From the NCBI GenBank assembly GCA_951406725.2, contig OX597824.1:18414001-18478000 (forward strand): a stretch of 64,000 bases of DNA. The letters are read 5' to 3'. This DNA is from Octopus vulgaris (taxonomy: Eukaryota). Below, piece after piece: positions 2,455 through 57,725 of the stretch. A model generated the notes under the pieces. It saw only the letters and a program-made list of their open reading frames with translations, was not told where the DNA came from and did no database searches. Position 1 is the first letter of the stretch, and every line of letters starts with the position of its first letter. The translations under genes and the position numbers were made by a program.

Positions 2455-3053
2455 ATTTCCCTACTACTCACAAGGGGCTAAACATAGAGAGGACAAACAA
2501 GAACAGACAAAGGGATTAAGTCGATTATATCGACCCCAGCGCGTAACTGGTATTATTTAATCGACCCTGAAAAGATAAAAAGCAAAGTCGACCTCGGCGG
2601 AATTTGAACTCAGAACGTAGCGGCAGACGAAATACCTATTTATTTACTACCCACAAGGAGCTAAACACAGAGAGGACAAACAAGGACAGACAAACGGATT
2701 AAGTCGTTTATATCGACCCCAGTGCGTAACTGGTACTTATTTAACCGACCCCGAAAGGATGAAAGGCAAAGTCGACCTGGGTGGAACTTGAACTCAGAAC
2801 GTAGCGGTAGACGAAACACCTATGTCTTTACTACCCACAGAGAGGACAAACAAGGACAGACAAACAAGGACAGACAAACGGATTAAGTCGATTATATCAA
2901 TCCCAGTGCGTAACTGGTACTTATTTAACCGACCCCGAAAGATGAAAAGCAAAGTCGACCCTCGGCGGAATTTGAACTCAGAGCGTAGCGGCAGACGAAA
3001 TACCGCTAAGTAATTCGCCCGGCGTACTAACGTTTCTGCCAGCTCGCCACCTT
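2455..3053 (-). mobile_element. SINE family B, head plus three tandem body units
   Basis: tRNA-like head AAGG(C/T)GGCGAGCTGGCAGAAACGTTAG, B-box GAGTTCAAATTCC, central GCCTTTCATCCTTTCGGGGTCG. Imperfect TSD TCAAAACTCTAAAAAT / TCAAAGCTCTTAAAAAT. Confidence 0.87.
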
Positions 3054-3643
3054 TCAAAGCTCTTAAAAATACGACAGTCGCTCCAAATGTCACGCAGCAG
3101 AATCGAACCCGAGAACCCTTTGAATTGTTAAGTGAACTTCTTCACTATTCTACTGAACTCAGTATATAAAGAACAAAAGTCCACAGCCTACAAATTATCA
3201 AATATGTCTTTCAGCGTCTACACATCATCAAAAACTGCAATTAACGGTTTTAGAACATTCTTCTGCCAACCGAAATAGAAACGATAAAAGTATTAACAAC
3301 GCCGCCATTACACTCTCCATCCTCATAGTCCTCCCCTTCGTCCTCCTCATTAACATTAGTCAACAATAATAACAACAAAAGTATATTTTCTGGGGTTTTT
3401 TTTTTTCCTTTTGGAAAGTGTTTAAAATCACGACAGCGCGAGCGAAAACGCAACGAATAAATAAACAAAAAAAAATAAATAAACATTTTTCTTTCCTCGG
3501 AAGTTCTCCCACTGGTGGCAAATCCTTTGATTCATTTCTCTGCCATTTTTACCTCCAAGGATGTACAGGATGAACTGCTGTACTCATATTACGACAGCCC
3601 AGTGCATGGATGCAGGAGATAGACTCATTGACGCTCACACACT

Positions 3644-4029: not shown

Positions 4030-5537
4030 AATCGTTCCTTTTTTAGGGACAAGGCCTGAAATTGTTGAGGAAAAGCTTTACTCGATTGTGCGAACCCATT
4101 ACTTGACTGGTACTTACTTCATGAACCCTGATAAAAGGATGATCGACAAAATGAACCCCGGTGGAATTTGAACCCTGAACGTAAAGACCCGGAAGAAATG
4201 CTGCTAAGCATTTTGTCCAGGATAGTAAAGATTCTGCCTGCTCGCCGCCTTAATATAATGATGGTTTCAAATTTTGCCACAAGGGCAGCAATTTTGGTGG
4301 AGGAGATGAGTCGATTACACCGACCCAAGTGTTCAACTGGTACTTATTTTATCGATCCCGAAAGGATGAAGGACAAAGTTGACCTCGGCGGAATTTGAAC
4401 TCAGAACATAACGACATTTCGTCCGGCGAGCTAACGATTCTGCCAGCTCGCAACCTTAATAATAATAATCATTATTATTATTATTTCTACTCTAGGGACA
4501 ACATTCTTGAAATATTTTTGGGAAAGGGGCTAGTAGACTATATCGACAACTCTGTGCGCAACTGGTACTTATTTCATCGACCCCGAAAGGATGAAAGGCA
4601 AAATCAACCTCGGCGGGATTTGAACTCAGAACTTGAAGACAGACGAAATACAGTTAAGCATTTTGCCCGGCGTGCTAACGAGTCTACCAGCTCACCACCT
4701 TAACAACAACAGCAACAACAATAATAATAATCTTTTCTATTATAGGCACAAGGCCAGAAATTTTAGGGAAGGTGCTAGTCAAGTACATCGACCCCAGTGA
4801 TTCAGAGATACTTAATTTATCGACTCGGAATGGACGAAAAGCAAACGCAAAACTGGACGGAAGGTCACTACAGATATTCCCCAGCGCGGTAACAATTCGG
4901 CCATTTCACCGCCTTAAAAACTATTATAACAAGGGCACTCAGAGAGCGCAAACCTCCGCCAAGGCAACACTAACGTCCTCTCAACGATTAGCGAAACATG
5001 ATTTTTAAAATGAAAATATCTTAAATAAACTCGACTGCTCTCACAAACGAGAATACTAAAAGTGAACCTGACTGCTCTCAAAAATTGAGTAAAAAAACAA
5101 AAAGAAAAAGCAAAAACAAAAGCAGGAATCTTTGTCCTGTACTGGATCGATCCCAAACTCTAATCAGTTCGTGCCAGTCATGAGGCCAAACATCCCTGAA
5201 AATTTCATCTGAATCCATCCAGCGGTTCTTGAGATATCTTGTCCACGGACAAACAAAGAAACAAACTAACAAACGTAAGTGAAAACAATGCCTCCGCCTT
5301 CGCTAAGGCGGAGATAATAATGGTTTTAAACTTTGGAAGAATGCCAGAAATTCCGAGACAGGTGTAAGTCGATTCCATCGACCGCAGTACTCCATTGGTA
5401 GTTATTTTATCGATCGAGAAATGAAGGAGCATGAAGTCGACCTCGGCGAAATTTGAACTCAGAAGGTAAAGACAAACGATAATACCCACAAAAATTTTGC
5501 TCGGCGTGCTAACGGTTTCTGCCAGCTCGCCGCCTTA
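4030..5537 (-). mobile_element. Cluster of about five diverged SINE family B copies separated by (AAT)n
   Basis: Repeated ACTGGTACTTATTT..CGACCCCGAAAGGATGAAAGGCAAAGTCGACCTCGGCGGAATTTGAAC blocks. Confidence 0.8.
4929..5315 (+). mobile_element. Helentron/HINE-like non-autonomous element
   Basis: Subterminal CCTCCGCC at both ends, 3' hairpin CTCCGCCTT-cgct-AAGGCGGAG, (ACAA)n tract, AAATTTCATC.GAATCC body. Confidence 0.62.
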
Positions 5538-12306: not shown

Positions 12307-12665
12307 TACTCTTTTACTCTTTTACTTGTTTCAGTCATTCGACTGCGGCCATGCTGGAGCACCACCTTTTAGTACTTATTCTATCGGTCTCTTTTTGCCG
12401 AACCGCTAAGTGACGGGGACGTAAACACACCAGCATCGGTTGTCAAGCAATGCTAGGGGGACAAACACACACACACATATACATATATATACATATATAC
12501 GACAGGCTTCTTTCAGTTTCCGTCTACCAAATCCACTCACAAGGCATTGGTCGGCCCGGGGCTATAGCAGAAGACACTTGCCCAAGATGCCACGCAAGTG
12601 GGACTGAACCCGCAACCGTGTGGTTGGTTAGCAAGCTACTTACCACACAGCCACTCCTGCGCCTA
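12307..12665 (-). mobile_element. SINE family A (small internal deletion)
   Basis: Match to family-A copies. Confidence 0.88.
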
Positions 12666-16339: not shown

Positions 16340-17017
<678 letters not shown>

Positions 17018-22109: not shown

Positions 22110-23065
22110 GTAAGAAATCTCGTCCGACGTCCTAAATATTATGCCTATGCGCCTATCTTTACCTACTAAATTTTTCGTTCCTTCCACGTTACTTCTTTGG
22201 GATTTAACACAGAGCACAGGCAACTGAGATACTATTTAGCTGTGTATTTACACAGCAACAAGCCGAATATTTTATTCAGATTCGAATATCATAGCACTGC
22301 ACATAACTAAGCAATGGCGTCAAAATACTAATCATAAAGCTAGCCGTCACATTTGATCCCTCATTCACTTCATGTAAGTCTGCTTGCAGTATTTGTTTAT
22401 CAACAACTATCTCTTGTATCATAACTTCAACAATTATATCACCCTCTCTTTACTCTTTCTCTTTTACTTGTTTCAGTCATTTGACTGCGGCCATGCCGGA
22501 GCACTGCCTTTAGTCGAGCAAATCGACCCCGGGACTTATTCTTTGTAAGCCCAGTACTTATTCTATCGGTCTCTTTTGCCGAACCGCTAAGTAACGGGGA
22601 CGTAAACACACCAGCATCGGTTGTCAAGCAATGCTAGGGGGACAAACACAGACACAAACATATACACACACACTTATATATATATATACATATATACGAC
22701 AGGCTTCTTTCAGTTTCCGTCTACCAAATCCACTCACAAGGCATTGGTCAGCCCGGGGCTATAGCAGAAGACACTTGGCCAAGATGCCACGCAGTGGGAC
22801 TGAACCCGGAACCATGTGGTTGGTTAGCAAGCTACTTTATTTCATATAATTTGCCATTTAGGCATTTACAAAGAGGGGACAAACAAGGACAGACAAATAT
22901 AAAGGGTGAAGTAGCTTAACACAGTTACAATTTTCGAATGAAATTACGGATAAGATTATAAACAATGAATTTTACGAAGGCAATGTTTAAAAATATTAAT
23001 GATCATGTCGAAGGACGGACACCCAGCCATCCGGGTAGAACCTTTACTTTCTGATCCGGTCACAC

Positions 23066-26000
23066 TTACCTGGTGCCAAACATACCCATCTTGTATGCCA
23101 CAGGCTTCCATCTTTTCACAAACATATCTCGTGACAGACACCTCTTCTCCAGCCTGATTTTGCTACTGAGGTGGTAACTAAAAAAGTTAATCAACCCCTG
23201 GCCGGAGACAAAGGTGCCTGTCACTATACCTTTCGTACGCGTCTTCCATACTGTTTCTTTCAGTATGGCTACTACACAGAAAAAACAAGCCTTTCTTTCC
23301 CTGTTAAGGAAAGGGGGCGGCACAATCTCGATGATAGACTCAGCTGATAGCTGTACTCTTCCCATCACTGACAACAGTTGTTCTACAAAAGCTATCAGTC
23401 CCGATAACTCCGGACACTCCACGAATGCGTGCAAGACGGTCTCCCTATCCTGCTCACATCGCGGGCATGTCGGCGAGACGGCACTACCGTGCCTTGACAG
23501 CTTGTCGCGAACAGGTAAAGCCGCACGGAAACACTGCCAGGCTAGGGAATTCTGGTAATTATCCAGATACCCCGGCCCGAACGTCCTCCGGAACAGGTTG
23601 ATCAACTGATTTTCATCGTAGCCCAGGGTCTCCCCCAAGGCGTCTTCGGACTTAATCTCCACTAACCCGCTATAGAAATCCGTGGTGGAACTCCTGTTGC
23701 CGGCGTTGCCCACCCGAGATAGTAGCTGGAGCGCCTGACGGCACTCCAAATGCCATTCACTCAGTTTAGGTCTCCGCTTGATCCATGCACCGATGTCCGT
23801 TAGGGATGTTAACTGGGGAAGGTAGAACCGGACGTGCGGCGACCACACCTGCTCTCCATCCAGGTAAAGCCAGAGGTGCCTCAACCTTAACGCGAGTTTT
23901 CGCATCCTCAGCCAAGGCATCCCTAGCCCACCCTTTAGCGGTTTCTGGCAGCAGACAGAGCGCTTTACAAGTGGCTTTCCTCCTTTCCACAAAAATCGGA
24001 AAAGGATTCTCTCCAACTTGTTCAGCCACAAATCGGGGCAAGGCACCACGGTCAGACGGTAGGTGATTACTGATGCTATAAACATCTGCACCACCTCCGC
24101 CTTCCCTAGCAGGGATAACGCCCGCCCAGACCAGGTCTGGGTTAGAGCGGTCACCTTGTTGGCCACCTCACTCCAATTTTTCTCAATCTGGAGGTCTGGC
24201 CCGAACCAGACTCCGAGCAGCTTAACAGGACCTTCCGTCCAACGCCCTACGACGTTATTGGACGGCATCGGCTTGCCCCTCCAGGTGCCGAGTTGCAAAC
24301 CGACCTACTTGTCCTTGTTAACCTTTGCTCCTGCCACCGCCTCGTAGCTTTTTATGGCCTCTTCCACCACTGGAAGCTGGCCTTCGTCTGCCACGATGAT
24401 GGAGGTGTCATCCGCATACGCCGTAGCTCCTCTTCCACACCATAGATCATGCGGCGCGCCCCCTAGTGCCTCCAACTTCCGCAGCAAAGGCTCAAGAGCC
24501 AATACGTATAGGAGCGAGGACAGGGGACACCCTTGACGAACTGAACGCTCGATCCTGAACGGCTTCGAAAAGGAACCGTTCACCTTGACTACAGACTCGA
24601 TGTCGCTATACAAAGCAGCGATCCAACCTCGAAAGGTCGGGCCTAGGCCAGCCTCTCCGAGGACCGCCGCCAGGTACCGATGGTCGACCCTATCAAATGC
24701 TTTGGACTGGTCTAAATGTACCAGCGCTCCCCCTGCGCCAGAAAGCTTCCCCACCCTCTCTAAGGAGTAGCGTATAAGGTGGAGATTGTCGTGGATCGTT
24801 CTGCCGGGGATAGCGCACGTTTGCGCTTCCCCGACAAGTTTGTCCACGACCCGCGCCAACCTTTTTGCTAGCACCTTGGCCAGAATCTTTAACTCTGTGT
24901 TTAACAGAGTTATGGGCCTGAAGTTCCCTATCTCGTCCCCCTTGTTCGGGTCCTTCCTGATCAAGGTCACCGCCCCCCGGCTCGCAGACTTGGGAATTCT
25001 CCCATTCTGCTGCCAGTTGGCGTAGACGCTAGCCAGCAGGTGCCCGAACAAGTTTGGCATACTTCTATAAAATTCATAGGGCAGACCATCGAGACCCGGC
25101 GACTTCTCCCCGGGGCACTTGCCCAACACCTCGATTACTTCCTCGGCTGTGATTGGCCCTTCACAGCACTCAGCCTCTCGTGTCGAGAGGCGCGGGCCAC
25201 CAGACAGGAAGTCCCTAAGGGCCTCACCATGATCCAGCGTCCCGCACCTCCCGAACAACTCGGCGAAGTGCTTGTGGAGTGCCTCACACATCTCGTCCCG
25301 CTTCTTGATCGTGCATCCGTTTTCATCAACAAGAGACCCAATTGTGGCATCGTTTCCACGCTGTGTTTCTATCGTACGGGCCCATCCGGCAACATTAATT
25401 CCCTCACGGCCCAATGCTCGTACTTTAGCCCGGACTCTACATCCCTCATGTTTGGTTTTGAGGTGACGGTCTAATGCCGTTCTCGCCGCTAAAATGTGAG
25501 ATGCAGAGCCCAACCTCAACGCCTCCTCTAAGTTCTTAACTAGTTGCCCTTCAATTCTAGCCCTATCTAGTCTTAGTTGTTTACTAAATCTAATGGACTC
25601 GAATCGAATGGCTCTTTTGAGGGTGAACCACCACCGGTTATTAACCACGGCTCCGGTTAACGCCCTCTGCACTAACACCTTAATCCGGCTACGGTATGCC
25701 TCGCGTGTCAAAATAGACTTGTTCAGCTTCCAGTAGCCGGTTCCTATCTTAAGTGTGCTATCTATGTCCAGTCTACACGTGACCATTCTATGGTCAGTAT
25801 AGGGCACCTGGACGAGCTGTGGACAACTAAAACTAGACTTATCTCTAGTTCTTATCACTATCCTGTCTAGATAAGACTTGAACCTTCCGTCGCCACTCAT
25901 CCAGGTCCACTCTGGGACGTTCGGATGGTCAAGTCTGTAACGATCTGCTAGCTGAAACCGCTTAAGCAGATCCACGAGACGTGAGTTCACTTTCCTATAG

Positions 26001-26467
26001 ATCGAGCCAACGCTATCGATGTGTACGTCAACGATAGCATTAAAGTCCCCTAATATCACTAAAGTCTTCGACGTCACGAGAAAGCCCTCTAGGCGCCGAT
26101 AAAAATCAGTTTGGAAACCTCTAGCACAAGGTGCATAGAGTCCGATTAACCTGAAGGCCTTACTGCTGTATGTCCCATCAAGGACGACCAGCCCACCTTC
26201 TGGGTCTACATAGACTGTACTTGTCTGTAGAGCCAAGTCTTTACGGATCAGTACCACTACGCCCCCTCGCCCTCCGGTCTGGCCAGGAGACATGATTTTC
26301 TCGTAGCCATTCAGGAGAGGCGAGAAGGTTTGTAGGCTGTCCAGCTTGGTCTCTGTAGCAACCATCACATGTATATCATGTGATCTGAGGTCGTCGAGGA
26401 AACAAGCCTGCTTCCACTTCGAACTCAGACCACGCACATTTAAACAACCAAGGTTAAGCGAAGCCAT
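23066..26467 (-). pseudogene. Tx1-like ORF2 (endonuclease-reverse transcriptase), one in-frame stop
   Basis: Motifs LNVRGL, ETK, GDFNA, YLDRI, TDH (APE); SPGLDG, FRPITLLN, DQSKAFDRV, VRQGCPLS, YADD (RT); CPRC-x7-H-x4-C. The two track ORFs (24305-26467 and 23066-24298) are in the same frame, separated only by TAG at 24305-24307 (NKDK*VGLQLGTW). Confidence 0.93.
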
Positions 26468-26483
26468 TACAAAAGTAAAGGTT

Positions 26484-27885
26484 CTACTTACATTTCGTTG
26501 GAGAGGTGGGGGCCGACCTCACCACACGTTTGTGGGCCCCTTCTTTCTCCTCTTTCTTCAGATAGTCCGGCAAGTTCGCGATATGCCGGATGGCGTTTGG
26601 GTGTCTGTCTTTTAATTGTTTGAACGTTGTTTCCGCAATCCACGCGTGTCTATTTCGATCTTTGTATTTGTTGTACAGTCTTGCTGACTGATGCTGAACC
26701 ACAATATCGTTTATGTATTTGTCTTGTGTGTCGAATTCAATTAATATGAGTTCATTTTCTTTTTTGTCTTCTTTTTCTGGGCCAGTTGAGCGGGATTTTT
26801 TTTTCCGTGTCTGTGGTGTGTCTTTGTTTTTATTATTTTTTGTAGGGGATGTGGACGGGGATGCTGCACGAATTCTTTTACGAACTGGTGTAAATCCCCC
26901 TCTGATACCTCCATGGTATCGTCTGTGGTAGCAATAGTTTGTTCGGTAGGCGCCGCGGTTTTTAGGGGGTGGGAGGTTTTAATAGTGTAGGGGTTTGTGA
27001 GTGCGAGGGCTGGGTTTTTTCTTCAGTCTGTTTTGGGGTTGGCACCGTAACAGCAGGAGTGGGATTTTTTGTTTTTGTAGGGGTAGGTGTGTTTGCAAGG
27101 GTAGGGACTTTTTTATTATCTGAGGGGCCTGGTGTCTGCGGTTTCTTTTGCTTGTCTGGACAGTCTACACGAATGTGGCCCTTTTTGTTGCAGGCGTAAC
27201 AGGTGGGTTTTCGGCCTTCGACCTGTACCCTGAGGGCTACGTTCTCGCCCACGAGCACCCTCTCAGGAAGGAGCTGCAGGTCCTCCGCTGTTCCTTGAAT
27301 TAATATATTAATGTTACGCCCGAGCCAAAATCGAGGGGTAGAGCATGTTACTTCTAGTATTTTTATTTTGTCCGCCCTTTTATATAACAGGGCGGCCACT
27401 ACCTCTACCGGATCTACGTCCGGCGGGGCTTCTACAATCCTGACCCGGGACGACCTGCGTCCCCTATAGCTTGGAAAAAGTACCACCTCCTTGGTTTTTA
27501 GGGGGTTCACAGAATGCCCGCGGGCCATTTCTTCCCCCGAGAAGCGGACATCCACAGTGCCATATGCCCGTCCCCTGGCGACGTACACGATGTCCTTCCA
27601 AATCGGGGACAGGCATTTCTCGATGGTGCTTTTTTCAAAGTGTTTGAACCTTCTGCTTTGTGGACAGAAAGTTTTAAACACTACGGTCCGCTTCTCGGTC
27701 TCCACGATACTGGCGGAGGGTGATATTTTAACATCACCACCCTCCTCTTGCATTCTTTTAAATAGCTCGACGAGCTGGTTGACATCGATGTCAATCTTCT
27801 CGGTAGCCACTGCGGCTACCTCAGAAAATTTTTTAACATTGCTCTCCTCAAGAGCACTACTTTCGTGAATAATTTCAACAGACAT
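26484..27885 (-). pseudogene. Tx1-like ORF1 (gag-like, CCHC zinc knuckle), two homopolymer frameshifts
   Basis: CYACNKKGHIRVDC knuckle in the 26962-27909 ORF; first ATG at 27885. Adding one base to each of two 5-nt homopolymers (near 26965 and 26897) joins it to the 26484-26702 ORF, which stops 16 nt before the ORF2 ATG. Confidence 0.82.
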
Positions 27886-28413
27886 TATTCTGTTGAAATT
27901 AGACAACACAAAAATTACGAATATTGGTTTCCCACAAAACTGGGAAACCTATAGAAAGTTTTTCTTCCAAAGTAGTTCAAAAAAGCAGTTCAAAAATTCC
28001 AATTCCCACCCCCATTCGGGGGAGGGGCACGAAAATAGTCTGGCAGGACTATATATAGTCACGTAAATAAAAAGCCACAGTGGCTAACAGTTCAACGGTA
28101 AGAAATTATTCAATTATTTCCCGGTAAAACCGGAGAACAAGACAGTTCAGCAACGTTTAAAGGCAAATTTTCAGTAGTAGGAATTCAACAATTAACAACA
28201 CAGCAAAACTCTTACCGGGAAGAAAACGCGTCCAAACCGTAGTACGGTAGGCAAAGTCACTCTTCTGTCAGTGAGGTTAGCAAGCTACTTACCACACAGC
28301 CACTCCTGCGCCTAGTATTTCTGTCTATTATTTCTGTATATTTATGCCTCAGGCTTACTTATCCCACAGTCATAAGAATACTTAATATCTTAATATTGAT
28401 TCATGGAAAGTGG

Positions 28414-28850
28414 AAGGCGGCGAGCTGGCAGAAACGTTAGCGCGCCGGGCGAAATGCGTAGCCGTATTTCGTCTGCCGTTACGTTCTGAGTTCATATTCC
28501 GCCGAGGTCGACTTTGCCTTTCATCATTTCGGGGATCGATAAATTAAGTACCAGTTACGCACTAGGGTTGATGTAATCGACTGAATCCCTTCTCCTGTCC
28601 TTGTTTGTTCCCTCTATGTTTAGCCCCTTGTGGGCAATAAAGAAATAAGAAACATTAGCACGCCGAGCGAAGCGCTTTGCGGTATTTCGTCTGTTTTTAC
28701 GGTCTGAGTTCAAATTCCGCCGAGGTCAAATTTGTCTTTCATCCTTTCGGGGTCGATAAATTAAGTATCAGCTGCGCACTGGGGTCGATCTAATCGACTG
28801 GTCCCCTACCCCAAAATTTCGGACCTTGTACCTAGAGTAAAAAATAATAT
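28414..28850 (+). mobile_element. SINE family B dimer with two different 3' tails
   Basis: Two monomers in tandem; flanking TATTGATTCATG direct repeat (TSD). Confidence 0.85.
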
Positions 28851-47318: not shown

Positions 47319-47404
47319 AAGAAAAAGGATCCAGTAATCCAGGCCTATACTCAAGGCAGGATACCTGCGAACACGGGCAAATGGAATGTGTGGAAAGTTT
47401 TGGT

Positions 47405-47771
47405 ATGCTTTGGGAGTTTTCTTTCGACGAGGAGGTTTTTCCATCTTTCTCAAACGCTGTCATTACTTTCGAGACAGTACTTCTTGATACACCAAGCATT
47501 TCGGCTGTTTTCATTACGCTAGCGCCTGCCATACGGGCACCGACAATTTGACCTCTTTGAGAAACCAATAGATCTGTCATTTTAATGAATTTTAATTACA
47601 TTTTTCTGATGATATCTGAAAAGATACAACAATTTTAGTAAAACATATTAAGCAACACTAATTATGAATAAAATAAAACATAAAAATATACTAGCTTTTG
47701 ACGCTTTTATAGATATTTCAAAATTATTATGCTATGATGCTAGATGTTTTCATTATTTTGTCTAACCCCTA
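47405..47771 (-). mobile_element. Tc1-like transposon 5' remnant
   Basis: TIR-like AGGGGTTAGACAAAATAATGAAAACA; HTH N-terminus QRGQIVGARMAGASV.KTAEMLGVSRSTVSKVM. Confidence 0.85.
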
Positions 47772-48144: not shown

Positions 48145-49643
48145 CATGTGTGTATGTATGTATGTATGTGTTTGTGTGTGTGTATCTATATGTATTTGTG
48201 TACTTATGTGTGCGACACTCTAAGGGCTTGTAAAAATCAAAGATCCTCTGTCTAATAAACACATACATACTCCCTATTAGATACTGAGTTCTGTTCCTCT
48301 TCTTTATGAAACCAAACTTATTCGTGGACACACGTGTACACAGACGTGTGCACACGTATATGTCACGTGCAATTGTGTCTATTATAGCAACAGCTGACAG
48401 ACAACTCTGGCTGGATTGTTCAGGAATGCCATGAGAAGCAGAGACGTTGAAGACATCAGGGGACTGCAATCTCTTTTACTTTGGCGATGCTGGTGACGTC
48501 TCTCTCTGTCTCTCTCTCTCCCTTTGTCTCTGTCTGTTTGTCTCTCTCCCTCTCAAATCATCAGCCGTGTCACGCACAACACACGTTAACATCCCAGTAA
48601 GATGCAAATAAAGTCTGTCCGTTTCTAAATGCAAAGAAGATTGAATATGTGACCACCAATGAGGATGAAAGCCTGTCTGTTTTAGCGAGAACACATGATT
48701 CAAACAACCTATACCATGAAGTATCTTGGTTTCTAATAACATGTTTTAAAACCACAAAGTATTTTAAATTCCGTATAAGTTGCTTTCTTTTGAGCATGTG
48801 AACAAACCGTTCCACCCCCATGGAGCCGAAACACGGAATATGAAGATGCTTACAGTTTGGCTGAATAGTACAGGAACCAGGTTTCACGTGAAGGCTTAAA
48901 ACATCACATGGAGTGAGTACAAGGATAAAGAGGAAAATAGTGGACAAATCGTACCCATATCTATGGCTTCACATTTAGACACAAGACCAATAATAAGTCG
49001 ATTCATTTGATGTCATGCTCGTCTGGTTGTTATTTTATCAGCCCCGAAAAAAATGGAAGGGTAAATTGGCATCGGTGGAATTTGAACTCTGAACATTAAG
49101 ACTTACAAAATGCTGGTAAGCATTTTGCCTGGCTCGCTACCTGCAATACCAGTTCTCAGCGTTACGCATATCTTACATTATTGCTCAAAGCATGGTAGGC
49201 TTTGTTACTGGAAGTTAATCACTACATGCAATTCAACACCTACCGAAAAGATTACTGGCCTAGTACTGTGGGACATATCTCGGAGGCAGGTGATTGAGGA
49301 ATGTATATCAGTTTATATAGTATAGCATGTATAAATACACATGTACTTATGTGAATGTGTGTGTGTATAATTTTCATATATATATCTCGCTTTGTCTCTG
49401 CCTTTCTCTCTTGCACTTCCTCTTTCTATCTTTCTTTCTTTCTTTCCCTCTCCATATATATATTTATATTTATTTATACATATTGTACTTATTGTATCAT
49501 ATTACTCATTGATGTGCACTGTTTTGTTCTGTACTATTATGTTTGACCTTGATGTTCATATGTAGTTGGTTAATAAATTATGTGAATGGGTATTATCTGG
49601 TAGTTGATTATTGATTAAGGTGTATTTCTCCATTTTCGTATTT

Positions 49644-55996: not shown

Positions 55997-56551
55997 GTGA
56001 GTGTGCATGTGTGTGCATGTGTGGCAGAGAGACAGATAGAAGAGTGGAGAGTGCTGTGTTGATAGAAGTGTGGAGAGAAAGAGGTGGCGAGTAAGGTGAA
56101 GAAAGACGTGGAGAGTGAGATTAATTTTGTATTGTAAAGCAATCACTAAGCTATGTGTGCAGTCCTTTCTGAATGACACAGCATCAAATGGAAATTTTGC
56201 TATTTCCTGCCAACGTTTTACCACAAAATACACTATCTTGAACAAAACGCTTCCGATCTATATCAAAGATAATTCCTTACACTCACTTAACTTCTTGAAT
56301 AGCCGGAAAGTCAACATTCTGAAATGGTTTGCCAAGAAGCATGCTGTTATTGTGAAAATATAGTTAAGTATTTTATATAACCTGAACAATATCACCCATC
56401 GACATCACTATCTCGCTAGAAATTGGTCCAAAAGAAATCATTAAGTAAATGGAAATAAAACAATAAAAAGAAGAGATCTTTTCTTCAGTGTTAGCAGTAA
56501 CTTTTCCAAATGTATCAGTGTGTCTCTGCCTTCGTTCATCATTAGCAAGTT

Positions 56552-57340
56552 CCTATTTCTTTACTACCCACAATGGGCTAAACACAGACAGGACAAACAA
56601 GGACAGACAAACGGATTAAGTCGATTAAATCGACCCCAGTGCGTAACTGGTACTTATTTAATCGACCCCGAAAGGATGAAAGGCAAAGTCGACCTCGGCA
56701 GAATTTGAACTCAAAACATAGCGGTAGACGAAATACCTATTTCTTTACTACCCACAAGGGGCTAAACACAGAGGGGACAAACAAGGACAGACAAACGGGT
56801 TAAGTCGATTATATCGACCCCCAGTGCGTAACTGGTACTTATTTAATCGACCCCGAAAGGATGAAAGGCAAAGTCGACCTCGGCGGAATTTGAACTCAAA
56901 ACGTAGCGGTAGACGAAATACCTATTTCTTTACTACCCACAAGGGGCTAAACACAGAGGGGACAAACAAGGACAGACAAACGGATTAAGTCGATTAAATC
57001 GACCCCAGTGCGTAACTGGTACTTATTTAATCGACCCCGAAAGGATGAAAGGCAAAGTCGACCTCGGCAGAATTTGAACTCAAAACGTAGCGGTAGACGA
57101 AATACCTATTTCTTTACTACCCACAAGGGGCTAAACACAGAGGGGACAAACAAGGACAGACAAACGGATTAAGTCGATTATATCGACCCCCAGTGCGTAA
57201 CTGGTACTTATTTAATCGACCCCGAAAGGATGAATGGCAAAGTCGACCTTGGCGGAATTTGAACTCAGAACGTAACAGCAGACGAAATACTGCAAAGCAT
57301 TTCGTCCGGCGTGCTAACGTTTCAGCCAGCGCGCCGCCTT
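56552..57340 (-). mobile_element. SINE family B, head plus four tandem 184-185 bp units
   Basis: Units start at 56552, 56736, 56921 and 57105; single head at about 57290-57340; TSD-like TTAGCAAGTT on both flanks. Confidence 0.92.
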
Positions 57341-57725
57341 CGTCTTTAGCAAGTTCTCCTTTTAATCACTTAATTTAAGCAAATTTAATCCAATTTGACC
57401 GCCATTTACTCTTTTCAACGGCCACTTGATATCCATATCCCATTCTCTTGACAATTGTATTTTTTCTCTTTTTTTTACATTCTTGGAAATGCGCATTGTC
57501 TACGTTTGCTCGGTGAAACATTCCCCCAAACACAGCTTCACCTACTGGTCAAATAAATGATAGACAAAGGTCGCCTAAAAAACATACTTTTGGTTCAACC
57601 CAATTGCGTAATGACTAGAGTTACTAGAAAGAGCAACCAAGTCTCCCAGGCCCTGAAGAAGATTAGACCGAATAAATACTGGTAAATTTGAAGTTACATA
57701 CAAGATTTGCAAAATATAACAAAGC

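Follow-up and report, generated by a model that had tools for sequence, protein, structure and literature searches.

The insertion at the SINE-A locus

The stretch of Octopus vulgaris DNA considered here (the window; 64,000 nucleotides, positions 18,414,001 to 18,478,000 of contig OX597824.1 in assembly GCA_951406725.2) carries a full-length long interspersed nuclear element (LINE), assigned below to the Tx1 clade, that is inserted in the transfer RNA (tRNA)-type head of a short interspersed nuclear element (SINE), here named SINE-A. The LINE proper occupies 22838-28274 on the minus strand (5,437 bp). A first-pass annotation of the window had drawn the insertion at 22822 to 28314; the insertion itself stands, whereas the LINE is shorter than those bounds, the end at 28314 taking in the head of the SINE. 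The perfect 16-bp target site duplication that it had reported is confirmed, as the upstream copy at 28275-28290 and the downstream copy at 22822-22837 (both minus strand) match with 0 mismatches. The duplicated 16-mer occurs exactly only once more in the window, within an empty SINE-A copy at 12626-12641.

LINE and host lie in the same orientation, both on the minus strand, and the insertion point falls between the A-box-like and B-box-like motifs of the SINE-A head, in agreement with the first description. The 22 bases that open the host head, including the A-box-like motif, lie at 28291-28312 (minus strand) and belong to a 40-base match of 100% to the empty copy at 12665-12626; the rest of the host, comprising the B-box-like motif, body, inner microsatellite and tail, extends over ~22446-22821 on the same strand. 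The A-box-like 11-mer is at 28302-28292 and the B-box-like 11-mer at 22806-22796, their starts being 43 bases apart in the empty copy, and each has one mismatch against the box consensus. The target at 28272-28293, made up of GGT and the 16 duplicated bases, folds as an imperfect hairpin. Disabling of the SINE promoter had also been proposed; the boxes are indeed now separated by 5.4 kb, although for so common a SINE this matters little. That the SINE serves the LINE as a safe haven, as was also suggested, is a possible rationale.

SINE-A has the boxes at tRNA spacing and the dispersed copies of a tRNA-derived SINE. Its abundance in the window is close to the 15 or so copies first counted (15 BLAST rows including the host itself for the part after the nick, and 12 for the head). 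Neither ARAGORN nor Rfam calls a tRNA in the window, the SINE-A head included. No outer target duplication is found around the host SINE-A, nor around the three other copies whose tails could be found among five tried, and SINE-A was therefore probably mobilised by another LINE. It may resemble the octopus CORE-SINEs OR1/OR2, which are marked by a shared CORE central domain. Two short strings sought for this comparison are absent from the PMC4824008 supplement.

The LINE opens with a 5′ untranslated region (UTR) of 389 bases (27886-28274, minus strand) ahead of the ATG of the first open reading frame (ORF1), which bears out the full 5′ end first described. Two short hairpins stand at its start, and the first run of four T is at LINE base 49, on which ground RNA polymerase III (Pol III) read-through from the SINE head was rejected as the promoter of the LINE. 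Rfam recognizes no ribozyme or other family at the 5′ end (best E 1.3). The 3′ UTR of 228 bases (22838-23065, minus strand) ends in TATGAAATA without poly(A), and its only AATAAA is completed by the AA of the target, both as had been noted; its last 60 bases share homology with the tail of another SINE (SINE-B). The boundary between LINE and target is ambiguous by 2 bases, and if the AA is LINE-derived the duplication is 14 bp. With a duplication of 16 bases, the first nick falls on a T-A step, as is usual for L1-type endonucleases. By BLAST, the body of the LINE is not represented elsewhere in the window, either as another copy or as a fragment.

Coding content and age of the LINE

ORF2 (23066-26467, minus strand; 1,133 codons) encodes an apurinic/apyrimidinic endonuclease (APE)-type endonuclease, a reverse transcriptase (RT) and a C-terminal zf-RVT domain (PF03372, PF00078 and PF13966). 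It matches human L1 ORF2p at E 1e-67 over residues 6-870, against E 4e-20 or weaker for R2 proteins, and residues N10, E39, D141, N143, D201, H226 and the YADD motif are present. Among named proteins, one from Argonauta hians comes closest, with 64% over one third of the query, and the other named cephalopod protein matches are at 48-57%. An in-frame stop interrupts ORF2 at codon 721 (24305-24307) and leaves the endonuclease domain of the window copy (ORF2 residues 1-240) unbroken; in all four sequencing runs compared below, 98-100% of the contig depth has another letter at this site.

ORF1 (26484-27885, minus strand; ~467 codons) lies in two frames in the window copy, interrupted at homopolymer runs near 26964 and 26895 by a 1-base gap in each. 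Seen against other copies, these gaps together account for the change of frame; they may be assembly errors. The ORF1 protein has one CCHC knuckle (PF00098, E 7.8e-05), and its atlas neighbours carry zf-CCHC, one cluster among them having ZCCHC3 RBD domains (score 0.90). As no sequence homolog was found at E 0.001 among 1,916 candidates, a part resembling an RNA recognition motif is a lead only.

Over the ~3,940 bases covered by seven closely related contigs of run X1, 7 substitutions and 2 gaps separate these from the window copy; one further contig, with 40 differences, is a diverged relative and was excluded from the count. The LINE is thus young, about 0.2% from related copies, as first described, but the window copy is broken by the ORF2 stop and the ORF1 gaps.

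Placement within the Tx1 clade

By its ORF2 the element has the make-up of a Tx1 member, with an N-terminal APE endonuclease, an RT and a C-terminal zinc domain, and the ORF1 protein agrees with the clade in its CCHC knuckle and putative RRM-like part. A metagenome scan with a 24-row alignment gave 360 relatives, of which 80 were kept and labelled by their flanks with Rfam (40 of the 80), ARAGORN (60 of the 80), end-to-end BLAST and known motifs. Rfam identified U2 in six of its 40 relatives, U1 in one and 5S in one, and ARAGORN called one tRNA. Of the 122 RT segments, 70 entered a quick tree and 40 a careful tree, after removal of near-duplicates, short rows and most of the distant rows, and the Tx1 references in both trees are these flank-labelled stand-ins, not named Repbase families.

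The Tx1 grouping has support of 98 in the quick tree and 95/93 in the careful tree. The window element, P0002 and the Argonauta protein form a group (98/99) that is nested in a 21-row group (95/93) together with the U2-flanked elements L005, L007 and L016; loci flanked by 5S or by a tRNA half fall outside the 21-row group, whose inner order is unsettled in the careful tree. Domains and trees thus uphold the Tx1 identity given in the first-pass annotation, and the RT phylogeny supports placement on a Keno-related branch, near U2-flanked elements. Keno itself was rejected, there being no U2 insertion: the flanks are SINE-A, with no Rfam match in the window.

Several observations on the relatives stand apart from this placement. 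The endonuclease hairpin loop differs among all compared relatives and gives no hint on specificity. L030 (1-70) and L034 (1-60), Tx1 relatives grouped at 100/99, start with a tRNA-like 5′ half, and the L030 match ends ~15-16 bases past the GGT of the D-loop, the same geometry as the window insertion. We take these halves to be Gln and Ser, respectively; the contigs of both stop short of the 3′ flanks. In L022 a U1 gene carries an insertion at its 3′ terminus. U1 or U2 5′ pieces precede the ORFs in L007-L010, L012 and L016, and snRNA-headed Tx1 families are known (PMC4494074).

Other copies and the shared 5′ junction

Twenty-four public runs were listed, 20 of which, from seven studies and under two organism labels, hold at least half of the sampled words; no RNA run with the sequence is listed among the 24. 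Assembled contigs of four runs (X1, X14, X15 and X16) were compared with 22800-28314 at 85% likeness, the contig listing comprising 32 of about 160,700 pieces. The 3′-most contig has a depth of 1,555 in X14 and 402 in X16, compared with 11-25 and 4-9 on diverged contigs. With the diverged contigs taken as single-copy, the family numbers roughly 50-100 copies; summed depths over the RT region, which at this likeness mix in older families, were excluded from the estimate. A 5′ contig of X14 has a depth of 1,144, and most copies therefore look full length.

One contig, record 8 of X1 (1,941 bases, depth 20.4), spans 26366-28304 and crosses both the 5′ junction of the LINE and the upstream copy of the target duplication. 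Its end falls 30 bases into the SINE head, exactly as expected for a 31-letter graph that enters a high-copy repeat, and those 30 bases are identical to the window. The contig differs from the window by 4 substitutions (26957, 27188, 27189 and 27453) and 2 gaps, all within the LINE, and at these six sites X14 and X16 favour its readings in 6 of 6, X15 for the substitutions only and not for the gaps. Its depth is like that of the LINE body in the same run (other close contigs, 13.7-23.2). If X1 is low-depth DNA at 0.3-0.5x per locus, as the estimate assumes, the chance that a single locus displays the junction twice is 1-6%, or 8-17% with overlapping mates. Assemblers tend to sever such thin links. 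Since the contig has the depth of the LINE body and the single-locus chance is small, the 5′ junction is probably shared by many copies.

Two variant sets can be recognized in 26470-27821: at 26470, 27418, 27475 and 27796, X14 and X16 favour other letters, X1 equals the window and X15 is mixed. Among the rows listed, no loose end falls at either LINE boundary, an observation given no weight since overlaps of 30 bases may escape the comparison. An exact search for the 3′ end of the LINE in metagenome contigs gave no match, and viral contigs held neither ORF2 relatives nor the SINE-A head.

Target specificity

The 3′ junction of the window LINE reads AGTAGCT, compared with AGTATCT in the U2-inserted L005, L007 and L016 (all three that were compared), an agreement of six bases in seven; a match this good is met at 573 of 117,128 window positions (0.5%), and the comparison was chosen post hoc. 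Poly(A) is present at the junction in these three relatives and absent in the window LINE. The first-pass suggestion that the family targets the SINE gains from this likeness and from the X1 contig, in which the 5′ junction recurs. We judge it probable that the LINE belongs to a Tx1 family that targets SINE-A and prefers one site just past the A box. Under such a site preference, the 3′ ends of other copies would continue into SINE-A AAGTAGCTTGCT, with differing outer flanks.

Several points weigh against this conclusion. With SINEs making up 11.6% of the O. vulgaris genome (PMC13282606), a single insertion in a SINE carries little weight. None of the 32 listed contig pieces reaches the 3′ junction, the 3′-most of them stopping at 22872, 22876 and 22882, and the 5′ junction is seen in one of the four runs only. 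That run, X1, is labelled 'RNA?', and its contig sides with the window against the X14/X16 majority at 27418, 27475, 27796 and 26470; it accordingly belongs to the subfamily of the window copy and may be an allele or one expressed locus. In the phylogeny the stem leading to the window's subgroup is long, and L050, with a U2-like flank, is placed elsewhere. None of the three SINE-B loci that bear the shared tail lies inside SINE-A. Moreover, the last 30 bases of that tail taken alone fail against shuffled sequences (102-357 of 1,000 reach the score), and a 3′ stem-loop (4-bp stem, 5-base loop, at the same place in three folds) is not significant, with z from -1.5 to 0.1.

The same evidence bears on an isolated insertion of a non-specific or otherwise-targeted Tx1 element into a common SINE, with the X1 contig as an allele or expression product of the window locus. 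The abundance of SINEs in the window (15 BLAST rows) and in the genome (PMC13282606) would favour such an event, as would the possible RNA origin of X1, its agreement with the window copy at the four sites where X14 and X16 favour other letters, and the unrelated sites of the SINE-B loci with the shared tail. We nevertheless consider it unlikely: the X1 contig lacks the six changes peculiar to the window copy and has no change of its own, and a single low-depth locus has a small chance of being seen. Under a symmetric allele model, the four substitutions would all fall on the window side with p = 1/16. The X1 depth is also even throughout the LINE, with a SINE-to-LINE depth ratio within threefold of that in X14 and X16, a pattern that fits sampling of the entire family.

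A family-wide 5′ junction with varying 3′ flanks could also arise if the SINE head were carried in the LINE RNA, either by 5′ transduction or as a captured head comparable with the U1/U2 heads of Tx1-Mar. Heads of this kind are published (PMC4494074) and have a parallel in the U1/U2 pieces ahead of the ORFs in the six relatives mentioned above, and a carried head would account for the X1 contig without targeting. It is nonetheless improbable, as the window copy has a matching SINE remainder on its 3′ side and would itself need to be the source locus, a chance of about 1 in 50-100, and Pol III transcription from the head cannot pass base 49. Slightly less probable again is a single insertion followed by multiplication of the whole SINE-LINE-SINE block through segmental duplication or read-through retrotransposition. 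Identical junctions would then be expected in many copies, and the 30 flank bases of the X1 contig do equal those of the window; however, the 16-mer variant in question is common among empty SINEs (482 contigs in X14, versus 295 with the other variant), which lends this identity little weight. The lack of an outer duplication round the host SINE-A argues against movement of the whole composite by the LINE's machinery, and mixed sequence lies upstream of the SINE head in each of the runs, although the contigs concerned are mostly empty SINEs.

A proposed mechanism for insertion at the A box

Under the preferred reading, a family that targets SINE-A, the APE endonuclease would nick the bottom strand at the T-A step CTT/ACC, one base past the A box of the SINE, and the top strand would be cut 16 bases further on, generating the 16-bp duplication. 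Target-primed reverse transcription would begin at the element's own 3′ end, which would be recognized by its sequence and not by poly(A). Because only the first AA of the target completes AATAAA, the LINE RNA would be expected to end some 10-30 bases into the SINE, and its tail could pair with the nicked strand; such pairing would explain the missing poly(A) and would reinforce return to the same site. Transcription would be driven by the LINE's own 5′ UTR, as Pol III starting from the A box of the SINE meets TTTT at base 49. The LINE family or an older relative may also have mobilised SINE-B through the shared tail, with a looser choice of site. It has been reported that co-transcription with the target can strengthen targeting (Kojima 2015, PMC4494074).

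A more ambitious reading joins these steps into one history, in which a still living Tx1 family exchanged U2 snRNA as its target for the promoter of the host's commonest SINE and relies on that target for its poly(A) signal, every transcript thereby bringing along target sequence that directs the following insertion. The same lineage would supply the tail for another SINE, which inserts into the heads of SINEs of its own kind, and would thus be a parasite of one SINE and a partner of another. As a whole we regard this history as doubtful.

SINE-B and the shared tail

The 3′ UTR of the LINE matches repeats at eight other places in the window (best 29/30, E 3e-07), all of which are tails of SINE-B, at three loci. 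These are a tandem of four units of ~184 bp at 56550-57341 (minus strand), each with a LINE-like tail and together flanked by an 18-bp repeat (16/18); a tandem of three units with LINE-like tail at 2455-3056 (minus strand), flanked by a 17-bp repeat (15/17); and a LINE-adjacent dimer on the plus strand, in which a unit with LINE-like tail at 28411-28647 precedes a second SINE-B body that starts at head base 15 and extends to ~28845. The tails are collinear with the last 60 bases of the LINE, most end on GAAATA, and all seven that were tested against the LINE beat 1,000 shuffles. The flanking repeats of these loci (18, 17 and 16 bases) are like that of the LINE. A relative of the LINE family, with looser site choice, is the likely partner of SINE-B on account of the shared tail and these LINE-like flanking repeats. 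One tail-bearing SINE-B locus sits in the A box of another SINE-B, and one has CTTGCTAA near its nick in common with the LINE target, a post hoc match that 95 of 117,102 positions equal.

The dimer (28411-28845) has as a pair a 19-bp outer repeat (17/19), and its second unit has another tail and restarts inside the A box; it is either a nested insertion or a dimeric subfamily. In the tandems each GAAATA tail end abuts GGTATTTC, forming a small inverted repeat, and the repeats each restart at about head base 50; this structure may reflect self-priming or template jumping. SINE-B was considered as a MetaSINE, a type with a 66-bp Meta domain after the head, and this label was rejected: by eye it is unlike the BivaMeta and BivaMD rows compared from the PMC4824008 supplement, from which two SINE-B strings are absent. 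The shared-tail pattern was found in none of the viral contigs and none of the genome contigs. SINE-B matches without a LINE-like tail number five within 1.4 kb at 4106-5536 (minus strand) and one more at 49023-49139.

Two short frames lie elsewhere in the window. A frame at ~47390-47595 (minus strand) is cut by a GATA microsatellite and presumably resembles the N-terminus of a Tc1-type transposase. The other, at ~16400-16670 (plus strand), ends ...WEQKLLHGKY... and is taken by us to resemble the C-terminal part of another non-LTR (long terminal repeat) element.

Comparison with known systems

The targets of Tx1 elements include Tx1D, U2, U5, 5S, satellites, microsatellites, Mariner-N4, LTR elements and Harbinger, with target specificity accepted when more than 20% of copies are flanked by one target type (PMC4494074); the tRNA-Leu spacer is a further target (PMC3706591). 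The branch around Keno includes families that target other mobile elements (PMC4494074). In O. vulgaris, 80 L1-Tx1 consensus families have been described, as well as 13 recently active L1-Tx1 families with 421 insertions, and no analysis of their targets appears in the available portion of that paper (PMC13282606). Literature searched by title and abstract, with Repbase, Dfam and subscription journals outside the search, gave no Tx1 element that targets a SINE. Tx1 insertion into other mobile elements is already published, and a SINE as target is apparently new.

A close published parallel is offered by Tx1-Mar and SINEU of crocodilians (PMC4494074). Like the window LINE, Tx1-Mar belongs to the Tx1 clade near Keno and has its sites in an abundant interspersed repeat, and it moves SINEs in trans, as proposed here for the lineage of the window LINE. 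Its target is a Mariner DNA transposon (an LTR element or Harbinger in other families), whereas that of the window LINE would be a SINE promoter, and Tx1-Mar families are old (85-87% to consensus) compared with a divergence of ~0.2% for the window family. The heads of SINEU are derived from U1/U2, and the 3′ part of SINEU-1 is without a known LINE, in contrast to SINE-B, which shares the tail of the window LINE. Tx1L of Xenopus (Christensen et al. 2000, via PMC4494074) is likewise an APE element that inserts in a non-autonomous mobile element, Tx1D; its target is a piggyBac-type DNA transposon and its specificity was shown biochemically, whereas that of the window LINE is deduced from sequence.

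Keno, Mutsu and Dewa target U2 snRNA, 5S and the tRNA-Leu spacer, respectively (Kojima and Fujiwara 2004, via PMC4494074 and PMC3706591). The window LINE approaches the Keno type in that its nearest labelled relatives are U2-flanked and share six of seven post-junction bases with it; these three families occupy functional RNA genes or a spacer, while the window LINE lies in a SINE head with no poly(A) at the junction. Dada DNA transposons also insert at an A box (PMC8869645), but that of real tRNA genes; they move by cut-and-paste into nucleotides 8-13, whereas the window LINE lies just past the box. Finally, SINE/LINE pairs with a shared 3′ tail are known (PMC3747384, PMC4824008), and SINE-B and the window LINE, with ~60 terminal bases in common, have the homologous 3′ termini of a pair of the stringent-tail type. 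The L1-clade pairs named in those sources are from maize, sorghum and Chlamydomonas, and none of the five mentions of Tx1 in PMC3747384 concerns a Tx1 partner.

Implications

Given that targeting of other mobile elements by Tx1 is already published, the insertion described here introduces no new class of mechanism. If the preferred reading is true, SINE promoters would join the list of Tx1 targets. The family is young (~0.2%) and its endonuclease domain is unbroken in the window copy, so that a shift in specificity from U2 to a look-alike site would be testable in vitro. The LINE lineage would also provide a candidate Tx1 partner for an octopod SINE, a group of elements for which partners are often unknown.

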